Below the pieces are notes generated by a model that worked only from the letters and a program-made list of their open reading frames with translations, was not told the origin of the DNA and did no database searches. Shown here in pieces: positions 5,934-16,238 of a stretch of 16,238 nt of DNA. The DNA is from Gemmatimonadota bacterium (lineage in GTDB: Bacteria; Gemmatimonadota; Gemmatimonadetes; Gemmatimonadales; Gemmatimonadaceae): positions 1 to 16,238 of the forward strand of contig JAZJZK010000057.1 of the NCBI GenBank assembly GCA_040389905.1, read 5' to 3'. A program made the position numbers and the translations under genes. Every line of letters begins with the position of its first letter. Positions within the stretch are counted from its first letter, which is position 1.

Positions 5934-6703
5934 ACCTTACGCTCAAGGTGTGGCGCCAGTCGGGTCCGAACAGTGCGGGCACGCTCACGGAGTACGCCGC
6001 GACCGACGTCAGTCCGGAGATGTCTTTTCTGGAGATGCTCGATGTCGTGAATGAACGGCTGATCGAGCAGGGAGAGGTGCCGATCGCGTTCGATCACGAT
6101 TGTCGCGAAGGAATTTGCGGATCGTGCGGCATGATGATCAACGGCGTCGCGCACGGGCCGATGAAGGCGACGGCGACGTGCCAGCTCCACATGCGCAGCT
6201 TCACGGATGGCGACACCGTCGTGATCGAGCCGTGGCGCGCGCGCGCGTTTCCGGTGATCAAGGATCTCGTCGTCGACCGCGGTGCGCTCGATCGCATCAT
6301 CCAGGCGGGCGGCTACATCTCGGTGTCCACCGGTGGGGCGAAGGACGGGAACACGATTCCCATTCCGAAAACGGATGCGGATTCGTCGATGGACGCCGCG
6401 GCGTGCATCGGTTGCGGGGCGTGTGTCGCGGCGTGTCCCAATGCGTCGGCGTCATTGTTTACCGGCGCCAAGATCTCGCATCTCGGACTCCTGCCGCAGG
6501 GGCAACCGGAGCGTTACCGGCGCGCGCTCAGGATGGTGGCGCAGATGGATCTCGAGAGCTTCGGGGGGTGCACGTTGTTCGGAGAGTGCCAGGAGGCGTG
6601 CCCGAAGGAGATCAGCATCGACGTGATCTCGCGGATGAACCGCGACTACATGTTTGCGGCGGTGTCGGCGGTCGACGAGCCGGTCGGAGGAGCGGACGGA
6701 TGA
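5930..6703 (+). CDS. sdhB: Succinate dehydrogenase/fumarate reductase iron-sulfur subunit, 257 aa
   Basis: GTG 5930 (GTGA overlap with the sdhA stop) gives [10 protein letters not shown]. Cluster motifs: CREGICGSC [2Fe-2S], [12 protein letters not shown] and [12 protein letters not shown]. Confidence 0.95.
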
Positions 6704-6860
6704 TGTACGGGTCTAACGCGGTTCTGCCGGGCAGCGCGCCCTTGCGTTCATCGGTATCGGCGGCGTAAGATGGCGACATCGCTGATGTGAGCCCTTCAGC
6801 ACCGTTGCCTTTGCACGAAGCAATCGCAATTTCTCGCCGCCGGACACTGCAAATCCCATC

Positions 6861-9455
6861 ATGAGAGTGCGCAGTGCTTCTGCACTGGCGGTCGTGCTGT
6901 GTATGGGTGCCGGCGTCCGTGCGCATCCGCAGGGCATTACGATCCGCAACGGGAACACGATGCGCGCCGTCGTTGTCGCGGGTGACCGGATCGCAATCCC
7001 CATCACGGTTGATTTCAGCGGCTACACGAGCGTGGGCGTCACCGGACTCACGACGGGAGTCACTTGGGATCCCGCTCGACTGGGTTTTGATTCGGCAAAA
7101 GCTGGCGGGTTGTACATCTCGGTCAACGGTACGGCGGCAGCGACGGGATCGCTCTCGATCTCGATGAATTCCGCATACTTCACGGAGACCTCCATACTCG
7201 CGACGGTCTACTTCACCGCGAAGAGCAGTGGTGGAGGAACGCGAGTGTCGCTCTCGCCGACCGTCGCGTTCGACAAGAACTACAAGAATATCCTTCCCGA
7301 CGCGCGAGTGCAGTCGCTCGATGTTTGCGTGGGAAAGCGCACGCTTTGGGGCGATGCGAACGCTGACCACGCCATTACGATCGTTGACGCGCAGCAGATT
7401 GCGCGCTTCAGCGTGGGTCTTGCTGTTTTGGACTCCATTGCCGTCGCCGATCAGGGCGACGTCACGGCAGATGGATACGTCAGCATCATCGATGCGCAGC
7501 AGATCGCCCGGTACAGCGTGTCGCTGAGTGCGGCTCAACGTGTGAACACGCCCGGCGTGGTCACACCACTAGTGACCCGCGTCGAGCTCGATCGCACATC
7601 GCTCGTCATAGGCGTGAATGCATTCAGCCAGCTGTTGGTCACGCCGAGAGGCCAAGGGGGCGTCGCGCTGTACGGTTGCCATCCCGTTGCGTGGAACTCG
7701 AGCGTCGCGAGTGTGGCACGAGTCGACTCGACTGGGCGAGTGTCAGGTACAGTCACCGGCTCTACCACTGTGTCCGCGACCGTTGAAGGCGTAGTGGCTG
7801 GCTCGGCCGTCGCGGTTTCGGAAATGCCGGCACCGATCACGCTGGTTTCCGGCGGCGATCAGGTTCAAGCTTCCAATGTGCGATTCATCGAACCGATCGT
7901 TGTATCGGTGAAGGACGCGCAAAATCGCGCGGTGCAGGGAGCCCGCGTCATTTTCGCCGTGACGGGGGGCGGCGGCAAGCTTCCGACATTCAACCCGGAT
8001 GTCGCAACAACGGACGTAAACGGAAACGCGTCCGTGGTCTGGCAGCCAGGTTTCGAGACTACGCATACCCTCGCGGCAACGGTCAGCGGCTTGCCCGATC
8101 TTGCCATCTCGGCTCGAACAGCGCGCGACGCCGGCGTATTCAACTGCGCGCTGTCAGCCGCGGAAGCGGCGTACTGCTGGGGCCCGTTGCGGACGGGGGC
8201 CTTGTACGTGCCGACACCCGTTGGGGGCGGCATGACCTTCCGTTCGCTCGCCGCCGGCGCAGGTGGGCACAGGTGCGCGCCAAGTCCAGTTGGTCACGCA
8301 TACTGCTGGGGGGCAAATGACTACGGACAACTCGGCGACGGAACGACGATCGACCGCGACACGCCGGTTGCGGTCGTCGGTGGGCACACGTTCGTACAGC
8401 TGAGTGTCTCTGCCAACGCTACCTGCGGGCTCTCATCGAGCGGAGCTCTGTCCTGCTGGGGCAGCGAGGGCTACGGTCTGTTCGGCGATGGCAAGCGCGG
8501 CGGCATTCGCTCCACGGCCACCGCGGTCAACACCGGAGACGTGTCATTCGTTTCGATGTCGATCAGTAGTGCGACATACTGCGGGCTCTCGACGACACAA
8601 CGGGTTTACTGCTGGGGTCACGGCGAATACGGCCAGGTGGGAGATGGCGCACTTCTGAATCGTGCCACCCCGACGCCGATTGCGGGATCGCGATCATACA
8701 TCGCGGTATCGACGGGCGCCGTTTCCAGTTGCGCGCTCGACGTGACGGGCAAGGCCTTCTGCTGGGGTGCGAACCTCATCACGTTCGAAGGCACGTCGAC
8801 GGGAAGGTTCGATGCGCCACTCGCGCTTCCCGGGGACCTGACCTTTGCGTCTATCGCGTCTGGAAATGACGGGAACGGTTGCGCACTGACGCTGGAGGGA
8901 CGGGCGTATTGTTGGGGGTTGGCTGGGGGAGGTTCGGTTGGCGACGGAACGCGGGAATCACGTCGCGCGCCTACGCGCGTTCTCGGTGACCTGACATTCA
9001 CCTCGCTCTCCATCGGCGACGGAACCACCTGCGCGAGAGCGACCAGTGGACACCCGTACTGCTGGGGTAACAGCCTCGAGGGACAGGTGGGAGACGGATC
9101 AGGGGCAACTCGATCAGTGCCGACGGCAGTGAACTGGATGGAAGGGCAGGTCGGTGTCCCCGTTTCGGTGACGGCGGCGGGCACCAGCAACTGGGGCTAC
9201 GCTGGCAAGGCCATTGGCGAGCCACCCTCAGTGACCATTCGCGACTATACGGGTGCGCCTGTGAGTGGAGTGACCGTGGTTTTCGCGGCCATCGCCGGGA
9301 GCGGGACTGTGACGGGCGGCACCGCTGTTTCCAATGCGAAGGGAATCGCGACTGCGGGTGGCTGGGTCCTTGGCCTGCCGGGCGAGAACAAAGTCATTGT
9401 TACCGCGCCCTCGCTACCGGGATTCGTGCTCTCCGCGCACGCGTATTCGCCGTGA
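6861..9455 (+). CDS. Secreted modular protein 1: signal peptide, cohesin-like, dockerin, Big_2-like Ig, Big_1-like Ig, 7 RCC1/BLIP-II-like repeats, C-terminal Ig-like domain (864 aa)
   Basis: Hydrophobic N-terminus. Cohesin-like pattern GDRIAIPITVD..VTWDPARLGFDS..GSLSIS..LATVYFTAK (~6960-7325). Dockerin WGDANADHAITIVDAQQIARF..GDVTADGYVSIIDAQQIARY (~7347-7526). WNSSVASVARVDSTGRVSG (Big_2). Seven C-x(n)-CWG repeats (~8140-9135). Confidence 0.85.
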   Translation: MRVRSASALAVVLCMGAGVRAHPQGITIRNGNTMRAVVVAGDRIAIPITVDFSGYTSVGVTGLTTGVTWDPARLGFDSAKAGGLYISVNGTAAATGSLSISMNSAYFTETSILATVYFTAKSSGGGTRVSLSPTVAFDKNYKNILPDARVQSLDVCVGKRTLWGDANADHAITIVDAQQIARFSVGLAVLDSIAVADQGDVTADGYVSIIDAQQIARYSVSLSAAQRVNTPGVVTPLVTRVELDRTSLVIGVNAFSQLLVTPRGQGGVALYGCHPVAWNSSVASVARVDSTGRVSGTVTGSTTVSATVEGVVAGSAVAVSEMPAPITLVSGGDQVQASNVRFIEPIVVSVKDAQNRAVQGARVIFAVTGGGGKLPTFNPDVATTDVNGNASVVWQPGFETTHTLAATVSGLPDLAISARTARDAGVFNCALSAAEAAYCWGPLRTGALYVPTPVGGGMTFRSLAAGAGGHRCAPSPVGHAYCWGANDYGQLGDGTTIDRDTPVAVVGGHTFVQLSVSANATCGLSSSGALSCWGSEGYGLFGDGKRGGIRSTATAVNTGDVSFVSMSISSATYCGLSTTQRVYCWGHGEYGQVGDGALLNRATPTPIAGSRSYIAVSTGAVSSCALDVTGKAFCWGANLITFEGTSTGRFDAPLALPGDLTFASIASGNDGNGCALTLEGRAYCWGLAGGGSVGDGTRESRRAPTRVLGDLTFTSLSIGDGTTCARATSGHPYCWGNSLEGQVGDGSGATRSVPTAVNWMEGQVGVPVSVTAAGTSNWGYAGKAIGEPPSVTIRDYTGAPVSGVTVVFAAIAGSGTVTGGTAVSNAKGIATAGGWVLGLPGENKVIVTAPSLPGFVLSAHAYSP

Positions 9456-11821
9456 ACGCGCCCTGGGGAAAAACAGCCTACGTCACACTAGGGATGTTGG
9501 CGCAGGTGCGGGCCTCTGTGGGTGTCGCTTTGCTCAGCGCATGCCTGAGCGCGTTTGGTCTGAGCGCCCAGGTCGTCACCCTGCGAGCGGGGGCGACGGT
9601 CGCGAAACACGTCGTACCTGGAACCAGGCTGGCTGTGCCGATTGTCGTGGACCTGAGTGCGGGCGCCGGAACCAGCGTGCGTTCGCTCCAGATGCGCGTG
9701 AGCTGGGCGACAGCACGACTCACCTTTGATTCCGTGAGGTCGTCGTCATTCGGTGTGTTGACGTCCAGCGCCGCCGACGTCGCGAGCGGGTCGCTGTCGC
9801 TCTCGAGCGCGGCATCGTCCGGCACGACGACGACGGCGGAGGTTGCGACGCTCTACTTCACTGCAAACACGACGGCGGGTACCGGCGGCACCCGCATACT
9901 GCTGACTCCTATCGCGGTCGACAACGATCTTGGTGCGAGCGTGGTAACGAGACTCAGGCTGCAGCATTTGGAAGTGTGCGTTGCGCCCGGCGTGCTGTGG
10001 GGCGACTCGAACAGCGACAATGTCGTCAACATCATCGACGCGCAGCAGATCGCACGCCACTCGGTCGGATTGTCGGTGGCAAACGAGACGGCGTTAGCCG
10101 CTCAGGGTGACGTGACCGAGGATGGCACGGTGAACGTCGTCGATGCACAGCAGATCGCGCGCTACACGGTGGCACTCAGCGCCGTTCCACGCGTGGGTGT
10201 TGCTTTTCCGATTGTGCCGGCGGTGAACGCGCTGTTCGTCAATCCGCTTGATGCCAGCGTATACGTGGGGTCGGCGACGCAGCTTCTCGCTGAGCCACGA
10301 GATGCGTCGAACAATGCGCTCAATGGTTGCCAGCCCGTGTCGTTCTCGTCGGGCGCGCCGACCATTGCGTCCGTCGATTCTGCAGGTCGCGTCTTTGGTC
10401 TGACGAGCGGTATTGCGACGATCACTGCGGCATCCGGGTCGAAAACAACCACGTCGTCGATCTACGTTGGACCTCCCGATGCCGCGAAATATCAGGCGAT
10501 CGCTTCCGTCAACTTTGCGTACCTGGCGGTCACAAACTACGAGCCGAGCGCGTTCATGCACGTTGCTGCCGACGCACTGACGTCCAATTTCAGCAATTTC
10601 GGAATGCGCTTCAGCAACCTCGAACCTCGTATTGCGTACGCCAACAACTCGGCTGGTAGCGATCGCGGAGTCACGGAAGCTCCCTGGGACAGCTATTATC
10701 AGGCGCTTCGTGGCGCCAACGACGCCATACAGGCATTCGACGCCGGGGTCGTGCCGAGTGGGGGGGTCGCTGAAGCAGGGAAGTACCGTCGTCTCGCCCA
10801 GATGTCGCAGGCATGGATGCTGTCGCAGCTCGCGTTGACGTTCGATCAGGCACTGATCATGGACGAAAACACGGTCACGGGCGCTGCGCAAACGCCGCTT
10901 TCGGCGTATCGCGACGTGGCGGCGAGCGCGGTGGCGAAATGGACAGCGCTCGCGGATGCCGAGGCGGGAAAGACGGACACGTATGAGCCGTCCGTATTCC
11001 CACTGGTGGTCGGTCCCCTTACCTCCGCACGAATCCAACGGTTCGCCAACACGATGGCTGCGCTCACGCTCGCCTACGCACCGCGCAACGCGGCAGAGGC
11101 GAGCGCGGTCAACTGGGCGCAAGTACGCGATCTGGCTGCGCGGGGCATTGGAAGCGGCCTCGCGGGTACCCCTTTCGACATGGACGTCATCGGGGACTTC
11201 AACAATTGGTATTCGAGTATCGTCGAAATCGGCGCCGCGCCCAGTTGGTTGCGCGTCGACCTACGGTTGATCAACCGCATGGATCCGGGGACGCCATTGC
11301 GCATGACGTCGACAACGCCACCTCCACGAGGATCGTCAGTCGACGCTCGTTTCGATACGGACTACGCCTATCTCACACCGATCCCGGGAGATCCAGGACG
11401 CGGCGTCTACATGTTGAGCCCGTACTATCACACGCGATACTACGCGCACGGTCTCGAGTCGCCAACCTTCAAGCAGACGCCGGTACCGTTTCTCCTCGCG
11501 GCCGAGAGCGATCTCGTGCGGGCGGAAGCGATCATACGAACGAATGGTGATTTCGCAACCGCAGCAACGCTGATCAATCTGACGCGCGTCGGCAGAGGAC
11601 ACCTCGCGCCGGCATCGGCCAGTGACGGAGCGACGACGCTTCTCGCATACATCGACTATGAGCGGGACGTCGAGCTTCTGAACACAAATGGATACACACT
11701 ATTCCAGCGTCGTCACGTCGATGGTCTTCAGCCTTTTACGCCGGTGCAGCTTCCCGTTCCGGCAAGAGTCCTCGAATCGCGCGGGCTACCGGTCTATACG
11801 TTCGGCGGCCCTGGTGGATAG
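9452..11821 (+). CDS. Secreted modular protein 2: signal peptide, cohesin-like, dockerin, Big_2-like Ig, RagB/SusD-like domain
   Basis: Same N-terminal module as protein 1 (dockerin ~9998-10177). C-terminal ~440 aa has SusD-like patterns: WDSYYQALRGANDAI, LLAAESDLVRAEA...AATLINLTRVGR, IDYERDVEL, LPVP. Start uncertain: GTG 9452 (overlaps the upstream stop), ATG 9494 or GTG 9506. Confidence 0.8.
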   Translation: MNAPWGKTAYVTLGMLAQVRASVGVALLSACLSAFGLSAQVVTLRAGATVAKHVVPGTRLAVPIVVDLSAGAGTSVRSLQMRVSWATARLTFDSVRSSSFGVLTSSAADVASGSLSLSSAASSGTTTTAEVATLYFTANTTAGTGGTRILLTPIAVDNDLGASVVTRLRLQHLEVCVAPGVLWGDSNSDNVVNIIDAQQIARHSVGLSVANETALAAQGDVTEDGTVNVVDAQQIARYTVALSAVPRVGVAFPIVPAVNALFVNPLDASVYVGSATQLLAEPRDASNNALNGCQPVSFSSGAPTIASVDSAGRVFGLTSGIATITAASGSKTTTSSIYVGPPDAAKYQAIASVNFAYLAVTNYEPSAFMHVAADALTSNFSNFGMRFSNLEPRIAYANNSAGSDRGVTEAPWDSYYQALRGANDAIQAFDAGVVPSGGVAEAGKYRRLAQMSQAWMLSQLALTFDQALIMDENTVTGAAQTPLSAYRDVAASAVAKWTALADAEAGKTDTYEPSVFPLVVGPLTSARIQRFANTMAALTLAYAPRNAAEASAVNWAQVRDLAARGIGSGLAGTPFDMDVIGDFNNWYSSIVEIGAAPSWLRVDLRLINRMDPGTPLRMTSTTPPPRGSSVDARFDTDYAYLTPIPGDPGRGVYMLSPYYHTRYYAHGLESPTFKQTPVPFLLAAESDLVRAEAIIRTNGDFATAATLINLTRVGRGHLAPASASDGATTLLAYIDYERDVELLNTNGYTLFQRRHVDGLQPFTPVQLPVPARVLESRGLPVYTFGGPGG

Positions 11822-12640
11822 CGAACGAAATCGACGCGGTCCCGAATCCGCAGCCCACTGTTCGCGTCGCTGGCAACAACAACCCACGCGTGACGCAGGT
11901 CCCCGTGACGTTTGCCGTCGAGAGCGGTCGTGGGTCGATTGCGGGCGCGTCGCCTGTCACTGACAACGCCGGTCGTGCCGACGGTCGGCACCTGGCAACT
12001 TGGTGCGTCATCGGGCACGAACACGCTCACGGCGACCGCAACAGGGTTGCACTGCTCGCCTGTCACATTCACGGCCCGGCGACGACTTCGGCCGCGCCGC
12101 TGGCGTATGAGCGGCTCATGGCGGGATATCTCTCTATAACTGCGGTGTCTCAGGCTCCGCGACGTATTGCTGGGGAGACAATAGCTACGGTCAGATTGGC
12201 GATGGCACGAGGACTCTCCGTGGTCGGCCCGTGGCCATCAGCACGTCGCTCGAGCAGCTGGCCGTGGGAGGCGCGCAAGGTTGCGGGCTCGATAGCGCCG
12301 GTGCCGTGTATTGCTGGGGAAATAATCAGAATGCGGGATCCACACCCACGCTCTTCGCAACTGGTGGCACCTTCGATAGCATTTACGTCGCGCTCAATCA
12401 CACCTGTGGTTTTCGCGCGGGAGCAGCATTGGTGACGGAACCCAGGTGACGCGCTTGTTCCCAGTCGCGGTGTCCACCAACCTGACATTCAAGTCGCTGA
12501 CATCCGGCCACTCCCATACGTGCGGGCTCAAGACCGACGGCGTCGCTTATTGCTGGGGTGAGAATAACCAGGCTCAACTTGGAACTGGCGTAGCGGGGGC
12601 GGCCGAGCTCAGCCCACTTCGTGTGCGTGGCCCAATCGTC
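11822..12640 (+). pseudogene. Frameshifted remnant of an Ig-like + RCC1-repeat C-terminal region, paralogous to protein 3
   Basis: Colinear fragments in changing frames: QPTVRV..VPVTFAVESGRGSIAG / TVGTWQLGASSGTNTLTATATG / AAPLAYERLMAGY / YNCGVSGSATYCWGDNSYGQIGDGT..VYCWG..HTCGF / IGDGTQVTRLFPVAVSTNLTFKSLTSGHSHTCGLKTDGVAYCWGENN. Frame changes near 11980, 12075, 12135 and 12428. No signal peptide, cohesin or dockerin. Confidence 0.85.
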
Positions 12641-12799
12641 CCTCAATTCAGTATTGGCAGTTCTTACCAACGTTCGCTACCTTTTGTATGCAGTTGCGCT
12701 GCAGTAGGAGCGCACGTACGGAGTCGCGCTGAGAGGGCCGCGCAAGCTTCTTGCCGCCTGATCGACTCGATTCATTGTGCAACACCGGCACGACGACGT

Positions 12800-12827
12800 T
12801 TCGGTTGGTCCACCTTGAACGAGTAGC
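12800..12827 (+). repeat. 5' leader duplicated upstream of protein 3 and of the remnant at 15903 (copy 1)
   Basis: TTCGGTTGGTCCACCTTGAACGAGTAGC matches 15872-15899 at 22/28 positions by manual ungapped alignment; both end 3-4 nt before an ATG. Confidence 0.7.
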
Positions 12828-12831
12828 GAAA

Positions 12832-15801
12832 ATGAAAGTCTCGCGCGCGGCCGCATGTCTTGCGGGCATGTCCCTCCTCGCCGCACCGAGCCTGCGGGCG
12901 CAGGGAACCATCGTCGTCCGCGGCTCCGCTGGCACCGCCATTCAAGTGGCGCCGGGTACCGTGCTGACGGTGCCCATCGTGGTCGACATGACTGCAGCGG
13001 GTGGGTTGAACCTCGCATCGCTCGCGAGCGCGATGTCGTGGGGGCTGACGCGCCTCACCCTCGACTCCGTCAAGGCGGCTGCGCTTGGAACTGTGATTCC
13101 GAACATGTCGCAAGCCACGAACGGGAGTGCGAGCGTCGCGATTTACGACGTGACCGGCACGACGACGACTGTTACCGCCGCCAATTTCTATTTCACGGCC
13201 CTCGCGGCCGGTTCCACGAAGATCGCCTTGTTGCCGAGCGTCGCCGGCTCCGACGCGGGAACGAATCTGCTCCAGCGCATCCGCGTGCGTGATATCCCGG
13301 TGTGCGTAGTGAATCCAGCGCTCTGGGGCGATGTCAACGACGACTTCGTCGTCAACGTGATCGATGCGCAGCAAGTGGCGCGCTCCAGCGTTGGGCTCAG
13401 CGTTTCGAACCCCTCCGCTGTTGCTGCTCGAGGTGACGTCAATAATGACGGTGCCGCCAACGTGATCGACGCACAGCAGTTGGCGCGCTACAGCGTCAGC
13501 CTCCCGGCCGTTGCACGGATCGGTACGTCGAACGCCACGCCCGCGACCGTCGCGAACCTGACGGTGTCCGCCGTCCTCGACGCCGAGGCTGGCGGCGTCA
13601 ACCCTGATGTGCCCGCGAATACGAGTGCGTTGGCCGTGGGCAAGCAGGCGCAGATTCAGGCGCTGGCGCGTGACGGTGGCAGTGTCGACGTCACCTCGTG
13701 TGCGGCGCTGACCTATTCATCGAACAGTCCCGGCGTTGCGACTGTCTCGAGCACTGGGCTCATTCAGGCAGTTGGTGCCGGGTCCGCGACGATTACCGTC
13801 GGTGCCGGTGGGCCGACCGCCACGGTGAATGTCACGGTGCCGGCCACCGGGACGCAGCTGGCCGTCACGACGCAGCCGACAGGTGCCGCCTCTGGGGTGA
13901 ACCTGCTCTCGCAGCCCGTCGTGCAGGTGCGCGACGGCTCCAATGCGGTGGTCACTGGTGCGACCAACCCCGTTACGGCAACCCTCGTCGGCTCGGGTGG
14001 GACGCTGGGGGGCACGACGACCGTGTCGGCCGTCAACGGTGTCGCGACGTTCACCAACCTCAGCGTCACCGGGCCCGGCACCTATCAACTCACGTTCTCC
14101 GCACCGACGCTGACGTCCGCGACGTCGTCCAGCTTTACGATCGGGGCCGCGCCCGGTGCACCGACGAAACTCGCGGTCAGCACGGCTCCGTCGTCTACGG
14201 CAGCTTCGCGCGTGGCGTTCCCTCAACAGCCGGTGATTCAGGTACAGGATGCGAACGGCACGCTCGTGCCCGGCGCCGGTGTCGTGGTGACGGCGTCCCT
14301 TTCCGCTGGTGCGGGCTCATTGAGCGGCTCCCTCACGGCAACGACGAATTCGAGCGGTGTTGCGACGTTCACGACGCTGTCGATTGGCGGTCCCGTTGGC
14401 GCCAAATCCATCACGTTCTCCGCGAGCGGCCTGACGCAAGTCGTGTCGAACGTGACGCTCACGGCCGGAGCAGCGACGACCATCGCGATCAACGGCGGCG
14501 ACAATCAGACGGCTCTCCCATCACAGGGAGTCGGAATCGCGCCGTCCGTCAAGATCACTGATGCCGACGGCAACAACGTTGCGGGAACGTCGGTGACCTT
14601 CGCCGTTGCCAGCGGTGGCGGTACCGTCACGGGAACTCCGGCAAGCAGCAACAGCTCGGGAGTGGCGACGGTCGGCTCGTGGACGCTCGGTTCGTCGAAC
14701 GGTACGAACACGCTCACAGCTTCCGCGAGTGGCATCGGCTCCGTGACGTTCACCGCCACTGCGTCGCCATCGGCCGTGCTCGCATTCCAGTCGCTCGACG
14801 CGTCGTACTACAACGTGTGCGGACTCTCGTCCGGCAAGGTCTACTGCTGGGGTAGAAGCGAGTACGGTCAGATTGGCGACGGAACCAACACCATGCGTCC
14901 GCGACCGACCCAGCTTTCCGGTAGCTATACCGCCTACGGGGTCGGCTACGTTTCCGCATGCGCGACCACAGTGTCTGACGTGTATTGCTGGGGAGGATCG
15001 TACGCGACATCACCCACGCTCAAAACCGGATTCGGTGCGTTCATCAGCGTGGCGGCCAGCAACGCCGGAAACGGCTGCGGCCTGAAATCGGGAGGGGTCG
15101 CCTACTGTTGGGGAACGAACTACCAAGGCCAAGTCGGTGATGGCACGAGCCAGGTCCGAGCGACTCCCGTTCTGGTCAGCGGTGGTTTGACCTTCCAGAG
15201 CCTCACGCTCGGTCTTGACTATGCGTGCGGATTGACCACAGCAGGGGACGCCTATTGCTGGGGAGTGAATCGGTACGGCGAGCTCGGACGAGGCGGTGGC
15301 GGGAGCTCGCCCGTAGGGAGCAATGTGCCTACGCTGGTCGTCGGGGGGCGCACTTTTACGCAAATCACGGCGGGTGACAGTCACACATGTGGCCTCACCA
15401 CGGCGGGTCAGGCGTTCTGTTGGGGGTTGAACGTCAGCGGGCAGCTTGGCATCGGCACCAACATCGACGCGACCTCGCCAACTCTGGTTTCTGGCTCGCT
15501 CACGTTCAGCTCGCTCGCGGCGGGGAGCAACCACACCTGTGGTATCAGCGGCGCGACCACCTATTGCTGGGGCCAGAACGCACGTGGCCAACTCGGCGAC
15601 GGCACGCAGACATCCAGGTCATTTCCAGTTGCGGTTTCGACCGCGCTCACCTTCACCTCACTCACAGGCGGACTCGGGCATACGTGTGCGTTGACGTCGA
15701 GTGGAGCCGCCTATTGCTGGGGTGAGAACAACGGTGGCGAACTCGGCAAAGGTGCGAACGGCGCCGCGCTCCTGACTCCCCAGGCTGTCGTCGCCCCGTG
15801 A
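12832..15801 (+). CDS. Secreted modular protein 3: signal peptide, cohesin-like, dockerin, Big_2-like Ig, three further Ig-like domains, C-terminal 7-bladed RCC1/BLIP-II-like propeller (989 aa)
   Basis: ATG 12832 gives MKVSRAAACLAGMSLLAAPSLRA|Q. Dockerin WGDVNDDFVVNVIDAQQVARS..GDVNNDGAANVIDAQQLARY (~13324-13503). YSSNSPGVATVSSTGLI (Big_2). Two LAVxTxP..QPVxQVxD..GVATFxxLS repeats and one Big_1-like domain. Seven (Y/F)CWG repeats (~14780-15798). Confidence 0.88.
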   Translation: MKVSRAAACLAGMSLLAAPSLRAQGTIVVRGSAGTAIQVAPGTVLTVPIVVDMTAAGGLNLASLASAMSWGLTRLTLDSVKAAALGTVIPNMSQATNGSASVAIYDVTGTTTTVTAANFYFTALAAGSTKIALLPSVAGSDAGTNLLQRIRVRDIPVCVVNPALWGDVNDDFVVNVIDAQQVARSSVGLSVSNPSAVAARGDVNNDGAANVIDAQQLARYSVSLPAVARIGTSNATPATVANLTVSAVLDAEAGGVNPDVPANTSALAVGKQAQIQALARDGGSVDVTSCAALTYSSNSPGVATVSSTGLIQAVGAGSATITVGAGGPTATVNVTVPATGTQLAVTTQPTGAASGVNLLSQPVVQVRDGSNAVVTGATNPVTATLVGSGGTLGGTTTVSAVNGVATFTNLSVTGPGTYQLTFSAPTLTSATSSSFTIGAAPGAPTKLAVSTAPSSTAASRVAFPQQPVIQVQDANGTLVPGAGVVVTASLSAGAGSLSGSLTATTNSSGVATFTTLSIGGPVGAKSITFSASGLTQVVSNVTLTAGAATTIAINGGDNQTALPSQGVGIAPSVKITDADGNNVAGTSVTFAVASGGGTVTGTPASSNSSGVATVGSWTLGSSNGTNTLTASASGIGSVTFTATASPSAVLAFQSLDASYYNVCGLSSGKVYCWGRSEYGQIGDGTNTMRPRPTQLSGSYTAYGVGYVSACATTVSDVYCWGGSYATSPTLKTGFGAFISVAASNAGNGCGLKSGGVAYCWGTNYQGQVGDGTSQVRATPVLVSGGLTFQSLTLGLDYACGLTTAGDAYCWGVNRYGELGRGGGGSSPVGSNVPTLVVGGRTFTQITAGDSHTCGLTTAGQAFCWGLNVSGQLGIGTNIDATSPTLVSGSLTFSSLAAGSNHTCGISGATTYCWGQNARGQLGDGTQTSRSFPVAVSTALTFTSLTGGLGHTCALTSSGAAYCWGENNGGELGKGANGAALLTPQAVVAP

Positions 15802-15824
15802 TCCACTAGTTCCAACGTGCTCGT

Positions 15825-15858
15825 GCCACCGGCGTTTTTCCACGCCGCCGGTGGCTTT
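15825..15858 (+). terminator. Hairpin after protein 3, possible terminator
   Basis: Perfect 10-bp stem GCCACCGGCG (15825-15834)/CGCCGGTGGC (15846-15855), 11-nt loop, followed only by a short TTT. Confidence 0.5.
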
Positions 15859-15871
15859 GGTCGGCCACGTG

Positions 15872-15899
15872 TTCGGTGGGTTTACGTTGAGCGAGTCGC
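15872..15899 (+). repeat. 5' leader duplicated upstream of protein 3 and of the remnant at 15903 (copy 2)
   Basis: TTCGGTGGGTTTACGTTGAGCGAGTCGC, 22/28 identical to 12800-12827. Confidence 0.7.
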
Positions 15900-15902
15900 C
15901 CA

Positions 15903-16195
15903 ATGAGCGCATCACGTTTCGCTGCATGTCTTACCGCACTGTCCTTCGTCGCCATCGCAGGGGTGGGTGTGTTTTTCGCGGTCGCGAGCGGTGGTGGCTC
16001 AGTCACCAGCGCCGCACCAAACACAAACGTGTCGGGGACCGCTGCGGTGGGCTCCTGGACGCCTGGCTCGGCCAACGGGACCAGCGCGGAATTGGCACAG
16101 CGCCGCCGACCTCCGGGCCGCCAGCGGTCGCCGGCGGGCTCGTCTTCACTCAGCTCACCGCGGGCGAGTCTCACGTATGCGGACTAACTACTTCT
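15903..16195 (+). pseudogene. Internally deleted paralog of protein 3 (signal peptide + half Ig domain + one RCC1 blade fragment)
   Basis: MSASRFAACLTALSFVA resembles the protein 3 signal and is fused in frame to IAGVGVFFAVASGGGSVT..GTAAVGSWTPGSANGT (protein 3 residues ~583 onward). A different frame from 16109 gives PPAVAGGLVFTQLTAGESHVCGLTTS (cf. PTLVVGGRTFTQITAGDSHTCGLTTA). It may continue beyond the window. Confidence 0.75.
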
Positions 16196-16238
16196 TGGCG
16201 CAAAATTCATCTTCAGAGAAGCGCGTTCATGGTGTGGA

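Follow-up and report, generated by a model that had tools for sequence, protein, structure and literature searches.

Almost all well-characterised cases of cohesin-dockerin assembly come from Gram-positive anaerobes, and the diderm cases in the literature covered here are genome-based proposals. Cellulosome adaptors also hold cohesin and dockerin in one chain (PMC3413522; this and the other papers given by PMC number are cited for the portions of their text that were covered here), and the dockerin of the R. flavefaciens adaptor ScaH is symmetric and recognises its own cohesin (PMC5301203). Outside cellulosomes, the planctosome of Nemodlikiaceae (Planctomycetes), proposed from metagenome-assembled genomes (MAGs), comprises a long cohesin-ended anchor and an adaptor carrying both a dockerin and a cohesin, with peptidases as cargo (PMC6461901); the diderm MAG of Ca. 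Stygibacter (Cloacimonadota) encodes a giant multi-cohesin scaffold with peptidase or glycoside hydrolase (GH) cargo (PMC8542988); anaerobic methanotrophic archaea (ANME) join solute-binding proteins to dockerins, and dockerin plus multi-cohesin proteins are present in them (PMC9012536); and the cohesin-dockerin pair of the Clostridium perfringens enzyme NagJ is mentioned in PMC3821032. Here we analyse a stretch of 16,238 nt, referred to below as the window, from a Gemmatimonadota bacterium (GenBank assembly GCA_040389905.1, contig JAZJZK010000057.1), in which three consecutive genes (genes 1 to 3) begin with a common cohesin-dockerin-Big_2 module. We lean, on sequence grounds, towards a reading in which the dockerins of such cargo proteins plug into lipoprotein-anchored cohesins, while the socket built into the module would be live in gene 3 and dead in genes 1 and 2. 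In the full-text literature we found no paper on a Gemmatimonadota cohesin-dockerin system, subscription papers and supplements, which may list such proteins, being outside the scope of the search; PMC9594917, which contains both "Gemmatimonad" and "dockerin", deals in the portions covered with an unrelated topic.

The shared module and its predicted fold

Genes 1 to 3 have in common about 315 residues after a signal-peptide-like stretch (the latter judged by eye), and the gene 1 module shares 40% identity with that of gene 2 and 35% with that of gene 3. In a profile search against Pfam, Big_2 is above the cut-off in all three genes, Dockerin_1 in gene 2 (E 4.7e-7) and gene 3 (E 1.2e-7) with gene 1 under it (E 0.0058), and Cohesin only in gene 2 (E 2.8e-5), gene 1 being just under the cut-off (E 5.4e-5) and gene 3 not listed; the NCBIfam scan of the window proteins gave nothing informative. 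The window dockerins are of type I, with two Ca-loop/helix repeats carrying D or N at positions 1, 3, 5, 9 and 12, and their six repeats form a single DNA repeat family with an internal spacing of 105 nt.

The module of gene 3 was modelled with AlphaFold2 on an alignment of 40 rows, comprising 13 sequences from the source genome, eight from relatives and 19 of 28 dockerin-bearing database proteins (three duplicates or near-duplicates and six other database proteins were left out). In the resulting model (predicted local distance difference test, pLDDT, 93.7; predicted template-modelling score, pTM, 0.82) the cohesin matches 6KGC (Foldseek E 4.8e-10, target TM 0.79; structural comparison Z 16.9, root-mean-square deviation (rmsd) 1.7, 128 residues aligned) and 2XDH (Z 16.3), the dockerin matches 2CCL_B (Z 9.3, rmsd 1.9, 62 residues aligned), and the Big_2 domain matches 7QUZ (Z 11.1). 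As predicted, the N-terminal domain of gene 3 is a nine-stranded type I-like cohesin; the corresponding domains of genes 1 and 2 are assigned as cohesins through homology and Pfam. A first-pass annotation of this DNA had described three consecutive genes sharing a cohesin-like domain, a duplicated dockerin and Big_2, with cohesin and dockerin in one chain and variable heads behind a constant module. The open reading frames (ORFs), the Pfam matches, the module identities, the differences between the heads and the predicted gene 3 fold, which matches type I cohesins, all agree with that description.

Cohesin-only genes and the genome-wide set of cargo

Profile searches of all ORFs revealed 13 dockerin proteins in the genome (Pfam alone found 12), each with a cohesin directly in front of the dockerin. 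Their genes are spread over eight contigs among unrelated neighbours, and their heads comprise RCC1 propellers, stalks of immunoglobulin-like (Ig) domains, a GH17 domain (E 1.6e-8), an M8 peptidase (E 1.6e-7) and InlB-type repeats. The first-pass view that no catalytic head is present holds within the window, but the GH17 and M8 domains of paralogs elsewhere limit it to that scope.

Four further genes encode a cohesin without a dockerin: two giants, one small lipoprotein and one small secreted protein. The giant at positions 782-8869 of contig C41 is an Ig-stalk protein of 2696 amino acids (aa) with three cohesins, i.e. a multi-cohesin scaffoldin, and that on contig C13 is a 3915-aa stalk protein with one cohesin; both are probable lipoproteins. 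The small lipoprotein and the small secreted cohesin follow directly behind the C41 giant, and the M8-headed cargo gene faces this cluster. The four anchor cohesins are 65-71% identical to one another and match solved cohesins (2JH2, E 1.3e-4; 5NRM, E 3.7e-4). For the small lipoprotein there is no Pfam cohesin match, but a cohesin fold is indicated by Atlas (TM 0.62) and by profile comparison (probability 97%); its lipobox-like Cys, as in the anchors of several relatives, looks good by eye. Because the genome encodes cohesin-only genes, and their order beside cargo is conserved in relatives (see below), the dockerins have an obvious partner in trans.

The small secreted protein (L001:9578-10075), a single cohesin without an anchor, is kept beside the small lipoprotein in genomes G080, G148 and others, and could cap free dockerins or chaperone them. 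Between the convergent genes for the small cohesin and the M8 cargo lies a short repeat (L001:10083-10128), matched by many high-depth contigs, which is possibly a terminator or an element of the repetitive extragenic palindromic (REP) kind.

Neither the 13 cargo proteins nor the two giant anchors contain a cellulase domain of families GH48, GH9 or GH5, or the carbohydrate-binding module CBM3. In a genome search CBM_3 was not found (the control worked; the genome is 84.6% complete), and GH48 gave no match in a search whose control also gave none. We rejected a cellulosome identity on the lack of cellulases and CBM3 in cargo and anchors; here the first-pass annotation was right, even though a multi-cohesin scaffold is present.

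A conserved dockerin code and two states of the built-in cohesin

Among the 13 paralogs the dockerins are on average 68% identical, the built-in cohesins 40% and the Big_2 domains 37%. D12-A13-Q14-Q15 and R18 are invariant in both dockerin repeats in all 40 rows of the alignment, and position 10 of both repeats is always Ile or Val. Two-fold symmetry of dockerin repeats suggests dual binding, and the one near-invariant, symmetric code found here points in that direction.

The 8-3-6-5 sheet of cohesins is the dockerin-binding plateau, and hydrophobic residues dominate some pairs (PMC5429695). All ten anchor cohesins have a Phe at the end of strand 6, and eight of nine small cohesins have a Phe or Tyr there; a Gly is invariant among the small cohesins. 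In a hidden Markov model (HMM) alignment the aromatic residue aligns with an outward Leu of strand 6 of 5NRM, and in the register of the gene 3 model it would face outward. Among the 40 built-in cohesins, 17 have both the strand-6 aromatic residue and a strand-8 Gly, 18 have neither and five are discordant, i.e. 35/40 are concordant (Fisher p 3e-6, overstated since the rows are kin). The aromatic residue is kept in 20/40 and missing in 9/13 of the source genome; both markers are kept in 4/13 of its proteins, including gene 3 (Tyr 13144-13146, Gly 13246-13248), and genes 1 and 2 have neither. On the tree the state of the marker residues changes nine times, at least six of these changes being forced by well-supported branches. 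We therefore predict that gene 3 is an extender and genes 1 and 2 are caps, with no free polymer of all three; chain formation is possible for about half of the family. A complex prediction for two gene 3 modules with four calcium ions scored 0.06 and 0.04 against a mark of 0.42, which is no evidence either way.

In the same tree genes 1 and 2 group with a gene on contig C22 and one on contig C7 (support 96/91), and gene 3 groups with the other C7 pair (100/99). Since these are separate supported sets, the array appears to have been assembled from different lineages; a simple tandem triplication was rejected because gene 3 is placed apart from genes 1 and 2.

In 40/40 rows, six to eight residues link the last cohesin strand to the dockerin. 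A pair of Cys residues, one before the dockerin and one in Big_2, is complete in 38/40 rows, and the single row without the first Cys is also without the second; Cys on both sides of the dockerin occurs in distant families too. The pattern suggests that a disulfide between cohesin and Big_2 would close the dockerin clasp covalently; in the cases that PMC3821032 describes the clasp is non-covalent, and the word "disulfide" is absent from that paper's text.

Relatives and conserved gene order

Profile searches were run on 150 genomes of the family and 300 of the phylum, scoring the best 20 and the best 10 candidates per genome, respectively, so that copy numbers are minima. The cohesin-dockerin profile matched 7/150 family genomes (five at E <1e-50; none of three from the same genus) and 11/300 phylum genomes, the small-cohesin profile 7/150 family genomes (the same five strongly and two weakly), and the anchor profile 12/150. 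When a pattern scan was restricted to a single genome for each species, 47 loci turned up in 28 genomes, all MAGs; a hand count of titles assigns 24 of these genomes to Gemmatimonadota and one each to Dehalococcoidia and Saccharibacteria, the remaining two being unclassified. At 20/47 loci, in 19/28 genomes, there is a same-strand cohesin-only gene within 6 kb, a count that leaves out L136 with its frameshifted cargo gene.

The order of a long anchor with a C-terminal cohesin, a small lipoprotein cohesin and cargo is found in genomes G080, G148 and G006, and partially in G020 and G385. In G185, G258 and G208, which belong to two other families, this order recurs with three to four cargo genes in tandem and another dockerin code. 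Judged from these sequences, the system is patchy across the phylum and three families show the gene order. A survey of architecture and synteny had been put forward in the first-pass annotation; the module does occur in relatives, but its neighbourhood there shows cohesin-only anchors beside cargo, so that the idea of the three proteins as a self-contained system is hard to maintain. Two proteins, one each in G006 and G080, are dockerin-only cargo, and the built-in cohesin is hence dispensable. Conversely, four cargo proteins carry an extra cohesin of the anchor type, namely P0010, P0011, P0038 and a 2409-aa protein of G080.

The last of these (L041:9045-16271) starts with a cohesin-dockerin, continues with about 20 He_PIG Ig repeats and closes with an anchor-type cohesin at its C-terminus, and from this layout may be a long extension rod. 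At L048, L131, L132, L139, L049, L052 and L082 the dockerin is at or near the C-terminus, with cohesin-only genes coming after it in several cases, which looks like a second layout of the same system. The operons L098, L099 and L100, in two other families, have another, partly asymmetric dockerin code with Cys flanking the dockerin on both sides, and are candidates for orthogonal cohesin-dockerin pairs. In the Dehalococcoidia MAG, L141 has the full order of anchor, small cohesin and cargo, and in the Saccharibacteria MAG, L149 has a dockerin only; transfer and mis-binning are both possible for these two. Finally, L059 and L060, from G010 and G038, which do not have the cargo module, encode 750-790-aa lipoproteins with a small-type cohesin at the N-terminus.

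Proposed assembly and alternative explanations

In the assembly that we lean towards, cargo would be exported by Sec and fold as a clamped unit, the disulfide between cohesin and Big_2 holding the dockerin as a looped-out insert. Docking sites would be offered by the three sockets on the 2696-aa Ig stalk, the one on the 3915-aa stalk and the one on the small lipoprotein. Short chains would grow where an extender such as gene 3 takes up a further subunit and stop at a cap such as gene 1 or 2, with the small secreted cohesin acting as a plug or carrier. The heads would act on outside material, the RCC1 and SusD-like ones by binding it and the GH17 and M8 ones by cutting it. Whatever domain is fused behind the module would become part of the complex, and the scattered expansion would thereby be explained. 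A more ambitious version, which we put forward tentatively and hold to be rather less than probable, is a programmable surface polymer: lipoprotein cohesins would seed it, live built-in cohesins extend it and dead ones cap it; the disulfide-clamped cassette would capture heads by fusion, including SusD domains moved off transporters onto stalks; the ratio of extenders to caps would set chain length and composition; and different lineages would use orthogonal codes.

It is conceivable, though we judge it unlikely, that the proteins are displayed on anchors without forming chains, the dockerins binding anchors only and the built-in cohesin serving as a structural partner like the X module of X-dockerin dyads. 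Built-in cohesins indeed diverge like the Big_2 spacer (40% versus 37%), nine of the 13 in this genome are without the strand-6 aromatic residue, and the short linker, the Cys pair and the pTM of 0.82 point to one rigid unit. On the other hand, half of the built-in cohesins keep the aromatic residue, 17 of them with the strand-8 Gly, across at least six changes on the tree; the second, anchor-type cohesin in some cargo means that extension is built into the family; and dockerin-only cargo does without any such partner. The first-pass annotation had instead given every subunit a live socket and a plug, the three proteins polymerising head to tail without an anchor. That each subunit has both is doubtful, given that genes 1 and 2 have lost both binding-face markers which gene 3 kept, and that relatives have dockerin-only cargo. 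The single shared, two-fold symmetric dockerin code, the true cohesin fold, the precedent of ScaH (PMC5301203) and the 4-nt overlap of genes 1 and 2 speak for such a polymer, but conserved cohesin-only lipoprotein genes beside cargo would then be unnecessary and the three modules, which are not sisters on the tree, do not form a co-evolved trio; we consider it improbable.

We give as little weight to the view that the dockerin is occupied by its own cohesin, or that the system is periplasmic, so that the proteins would be monomeric or not displayed on the surface. The high inter-domain confidence of the model could reflect an intramolecular interface; however, a linker of six to eight residues is likely too short for the dockerin to reach the 8-3-6-5 face, and the code is unchanged in dockerins that have no built-in cohesin. 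That no signal for export across the outer membrane was recognised in the proteins agrees with a periplasmic location, but an outward role would suit the SusD-like, GH17, M8 and long Ig-stalk heads.

Docking onto lipoprotein anchors with live and dead built-in sockets must itself be weighed against several observations. The orientation of the strand-6 residue towards the dockerin comes from strand alternation in the model and the HMM alignment with 5NRM, not from coordinates, and the strand-8 Gly occurs in only 6/10 anchor cohesins and is not an absolute marker of a live socket. Both giant anchors have atypical lipoboxes by eye, with Arg or Thr before the Cys, and there is no anchor gene near the window in the source genome. 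Of the five genomes in which the small cohesin co-occurs strongly with cargo, four had contributed to the small-cohesin profile, and 27/47 loci are without a cohesin-only gene within 6 kb on the same strand, many contigs being short. In seven family genomes anchor-like cohesins occur but the cargo module has no strong match, which suggests that the cohesins also serve other dockerin types, one such type being present in G111 and G143. In the genome no outer-membrane export route was identified; two secretins are present, and a search for TIGR04183 (the type IX secretion system tail) gave no match, nor did its control. The tetranucleotide correlation of the window contig is 0.978, the second-lowest among contigs longer than 10 kb.

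A full parts list, the gene order over three families and a residue-level prediction of extenders and caps make the proposal accessible with small recombinant domains, the carriers all being MAGs. If correct, it would reveal how the surface is built in an abundant, poorly understood phylum, offer a natural case of a SusD-like domain released from SusC, and provide new, probably orthogonal cohesin-dockerin pairs for Gram-negative display.

Features of the window and origin of the heads

The features of the array are listed in Table 1. The start of gene 2 overlaps the stop of gene 1 by 4 nt; alternative starts are an ATG 14 codons downstream of the GTG in gene 2 and a TTG at 12751 in gene 3, the latter giving 1016 aa. 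In genes 1 and 3 alike the C[WF]G repeat occurs seven times, the number of an RCC1 propeller. An insert of about 15 residues in Big_2 (window 13572-13620) is common to gene 3 and its nearest kin, the C7 pair, P0004 and P0005, and forms a beta extension in the gene 3 model.

Table 1. Coordinates of genes, domains and remnants in the window
Feature	Position	Strand	Description
Gene 1	6861..9455	+	864 aa: signal-like peptide, cohesin, dockerin, Big_2, Ig, 7-repeat RCC1 propeller, C-terminal Ig; predicted cap
Gene 1 cohesin	6930..7331	+	Terminates in conserved Cys motif
Gene 1 dockerin	7347..7541	+	Two Ca-loop/helix repeats
Gene 1 Big_2	7572..7820	+	Holds second conserved Cys, 7677-7679
Gene 1 RCC1 propeller	8133..9155 (approximate)	+	Seven CWG repeats
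Gene 2	9452..11821	+	789 aa from GTG: cohesin, dockerin, Big_2, SusD-like head; predicted cap
Gene 2 cohesin	9569..9982	+	Pfam and homology
Gene 2 dockerin	9998..10192	+	Pfam and DNA repeat family
Gene 2 Big_2	10220..10474	+	Pfam
Gene 2 SusD-like head	10475..11815	+	70% identical to SusC-linked lipoprotein on contig C12, without its lipoprotein signal
Remnant 1	11820..12650	+	Frameshifted Ig and RCC1 tail beginning at gene 2 stop, closest to gene 3 tail
Gene 3	12832..15801	+	989 aa from ATG: cohesin, dockerin, Big_2, three-Ig stalk, 7-repeat RCC1 propeller; predicted extender
Gene 3 cohesin	12904..13308	+	Type I cohesin fold (model); Cys 13303-13305
Gene 3 dockerin	13324..13518	+	Three helices (model)
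Gene 3 Big_2	13537..13845	+	With beta insert; Cys 13699-13701
Gene 3 Ig stalk	13852..14775 (approximate)	+	About three Ig-like domains
Gene 3 RCC1 propeller	14788..15798	+	RCC1 repeats
Remnant 2	15900..16185	+	Frameshifted Ig and start of RCC1 repeat, cut by contig-end repeated element

The head of gene 2 has no match in Pfam or NCBIfam and only a weak one to the SusD structure 3MCX in the PDB (E 0.25), but its homologs are called SusD/RagB by their sources and a few carry PF07980. Among the best 120 of 170 matches (lengths 433-1381 searched) its nearest relative is a lipoprotein gene on contig C12 of the same genome (314/447 aa identical), the match beginning right after the lipoprotein's signal region; the other 118 relatives listed among these 120 are 435-560 aa long. 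The C12 gene lies directly downstream of a SusC/RagA receptor (TIGR04056, 455 bits, cut-off 368), i.e. in the SusD/RagB gene order that gene 2 does not have, and in gene 2 the lipoprotein signal is replaced by the cohesin-dockerin-Big_2 module. By these comparisons the head of gene 2 is a graft from the genome's own SusC-linked SusD-like gene. Two paralogs on contig C5 end in another SusD-like domain, which shares 38-40% identity with a different C12 gene and about 25% with gene 2; because this head differs and resembles another C12 gene, the graft likely happened twice. A cargo protein on contig C3 (L005:179-4618) has a repeated head without a Pfam match. This head shares 39% identity with the C-terminal ends of two giant proteins from contig C50 (15878-23986 and 27004-33951) that are without the cohesin-dockerin module; it is likely another head graft.

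Two decayed paralogs had been noted in the first-pass annotation. Decayed pieces are present, but they are Ig/RCC1 tails without any cohesin or dockerin signal, and we rejected their origin as whole paralogs on that account. That they are a quirk of one assembly was also rejected, a second assembly being identical, though not an independent sample. Remnant 1 is consistent with an older Ig-RCC1 tail severed by the SusD-like graft.

The window is the entire contig, from a genome of 5.08 Mb in 66 contigs (84.6% complete) whose assignment to Gemmatimonadota agrees with its named homologs. Upstream of the array are genes that we take, from their translations, to be housekeeping genes (IHF/HU, moaD, moaE, moaA, malate dehydrogenase and sdhCAB). 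The second assembly, probably from the same sample, covers 6700-16213 with 0 differences and 0 gaps, and in run X1 the depth of the window contig (12.3) is similar to that of the anchor operon (10.1-13.5). A repeat of 55-62 nt at the contig end (window 16184-16238) has a higher depth and also begins contigs C6 and C39; it is probably one end of a mobile element, which truncated remnant 2 and interrupted the assembly.

Comparison with known systems

The C. perfringens NagJ (GH84) cohesin-dockerin is the best sequence match of the anchor and small-cohesin profiles and is likewise non-cellulosomal. The NagJ pair joins secreted glycoside hydrolases of a monoderm and, unlike the system described here, is not known to have a lipoprotein-anchor operon. 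Archaeoglobus fulgidus has a tandem cohesin-dockerin gene, and for the cohesin-dockerin proteins of A. fulgidus and ANME, which are archaeal and S-layer linked, the likeness lies in the match of the gene 3 model to 2XDH (Z 16.3); the ANME fusions of solute-binding proteins to dockerins parallel the SusD-like graft. The complex of Ca. Stygibacter differs in its C-terminal dockerins and its CBM-bearing scaffold with a C-terminal attachment domain, and a cohesin on cargo is not described in the portions of text covered (PMC8542988). Like the planctosome, the present system is non-cellulosomal and found in a diderm; the planctosome, however, has an anchor with lamin-tail and P-domain and cargo with M12B and M14 peptidases, none of which had a match in the proteins scanned here, where cargo is mostly RCC1, SusD-like and Ig.

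The anchoring and adaptor scaffoldins of cellulosomes (A. cellulolyticus ScaA-D; R. flavefaciens ScaC, ScaH and ScaE) share the type I-like cohesin fold and the dockerin, and the combination of both in one chain, typical of adaptors of the ScaC/ScaH type, is found in 13/13 dockerin proteins of this genome. Unlike those scaffoldins, the proteins described here come from a diderm host, have predicted lipoprotein anchors instead of SLH (S-layer homology) modules or sortase attachment, and include no cellulase or CBM3 among 13 cargo proteins and two giant anchors. Moreover, cellulosome adaptors are few, whereas here an N-terminal cohesin-dockerin-Big_2 cassette is present on nearly every cargo protein. 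In terms of sequence, then, the system resembles a network of anchoring and adaptor scaffoldins, and differs from it in having an adaptor cassette, in two sequence states, on almost every cargo protein.

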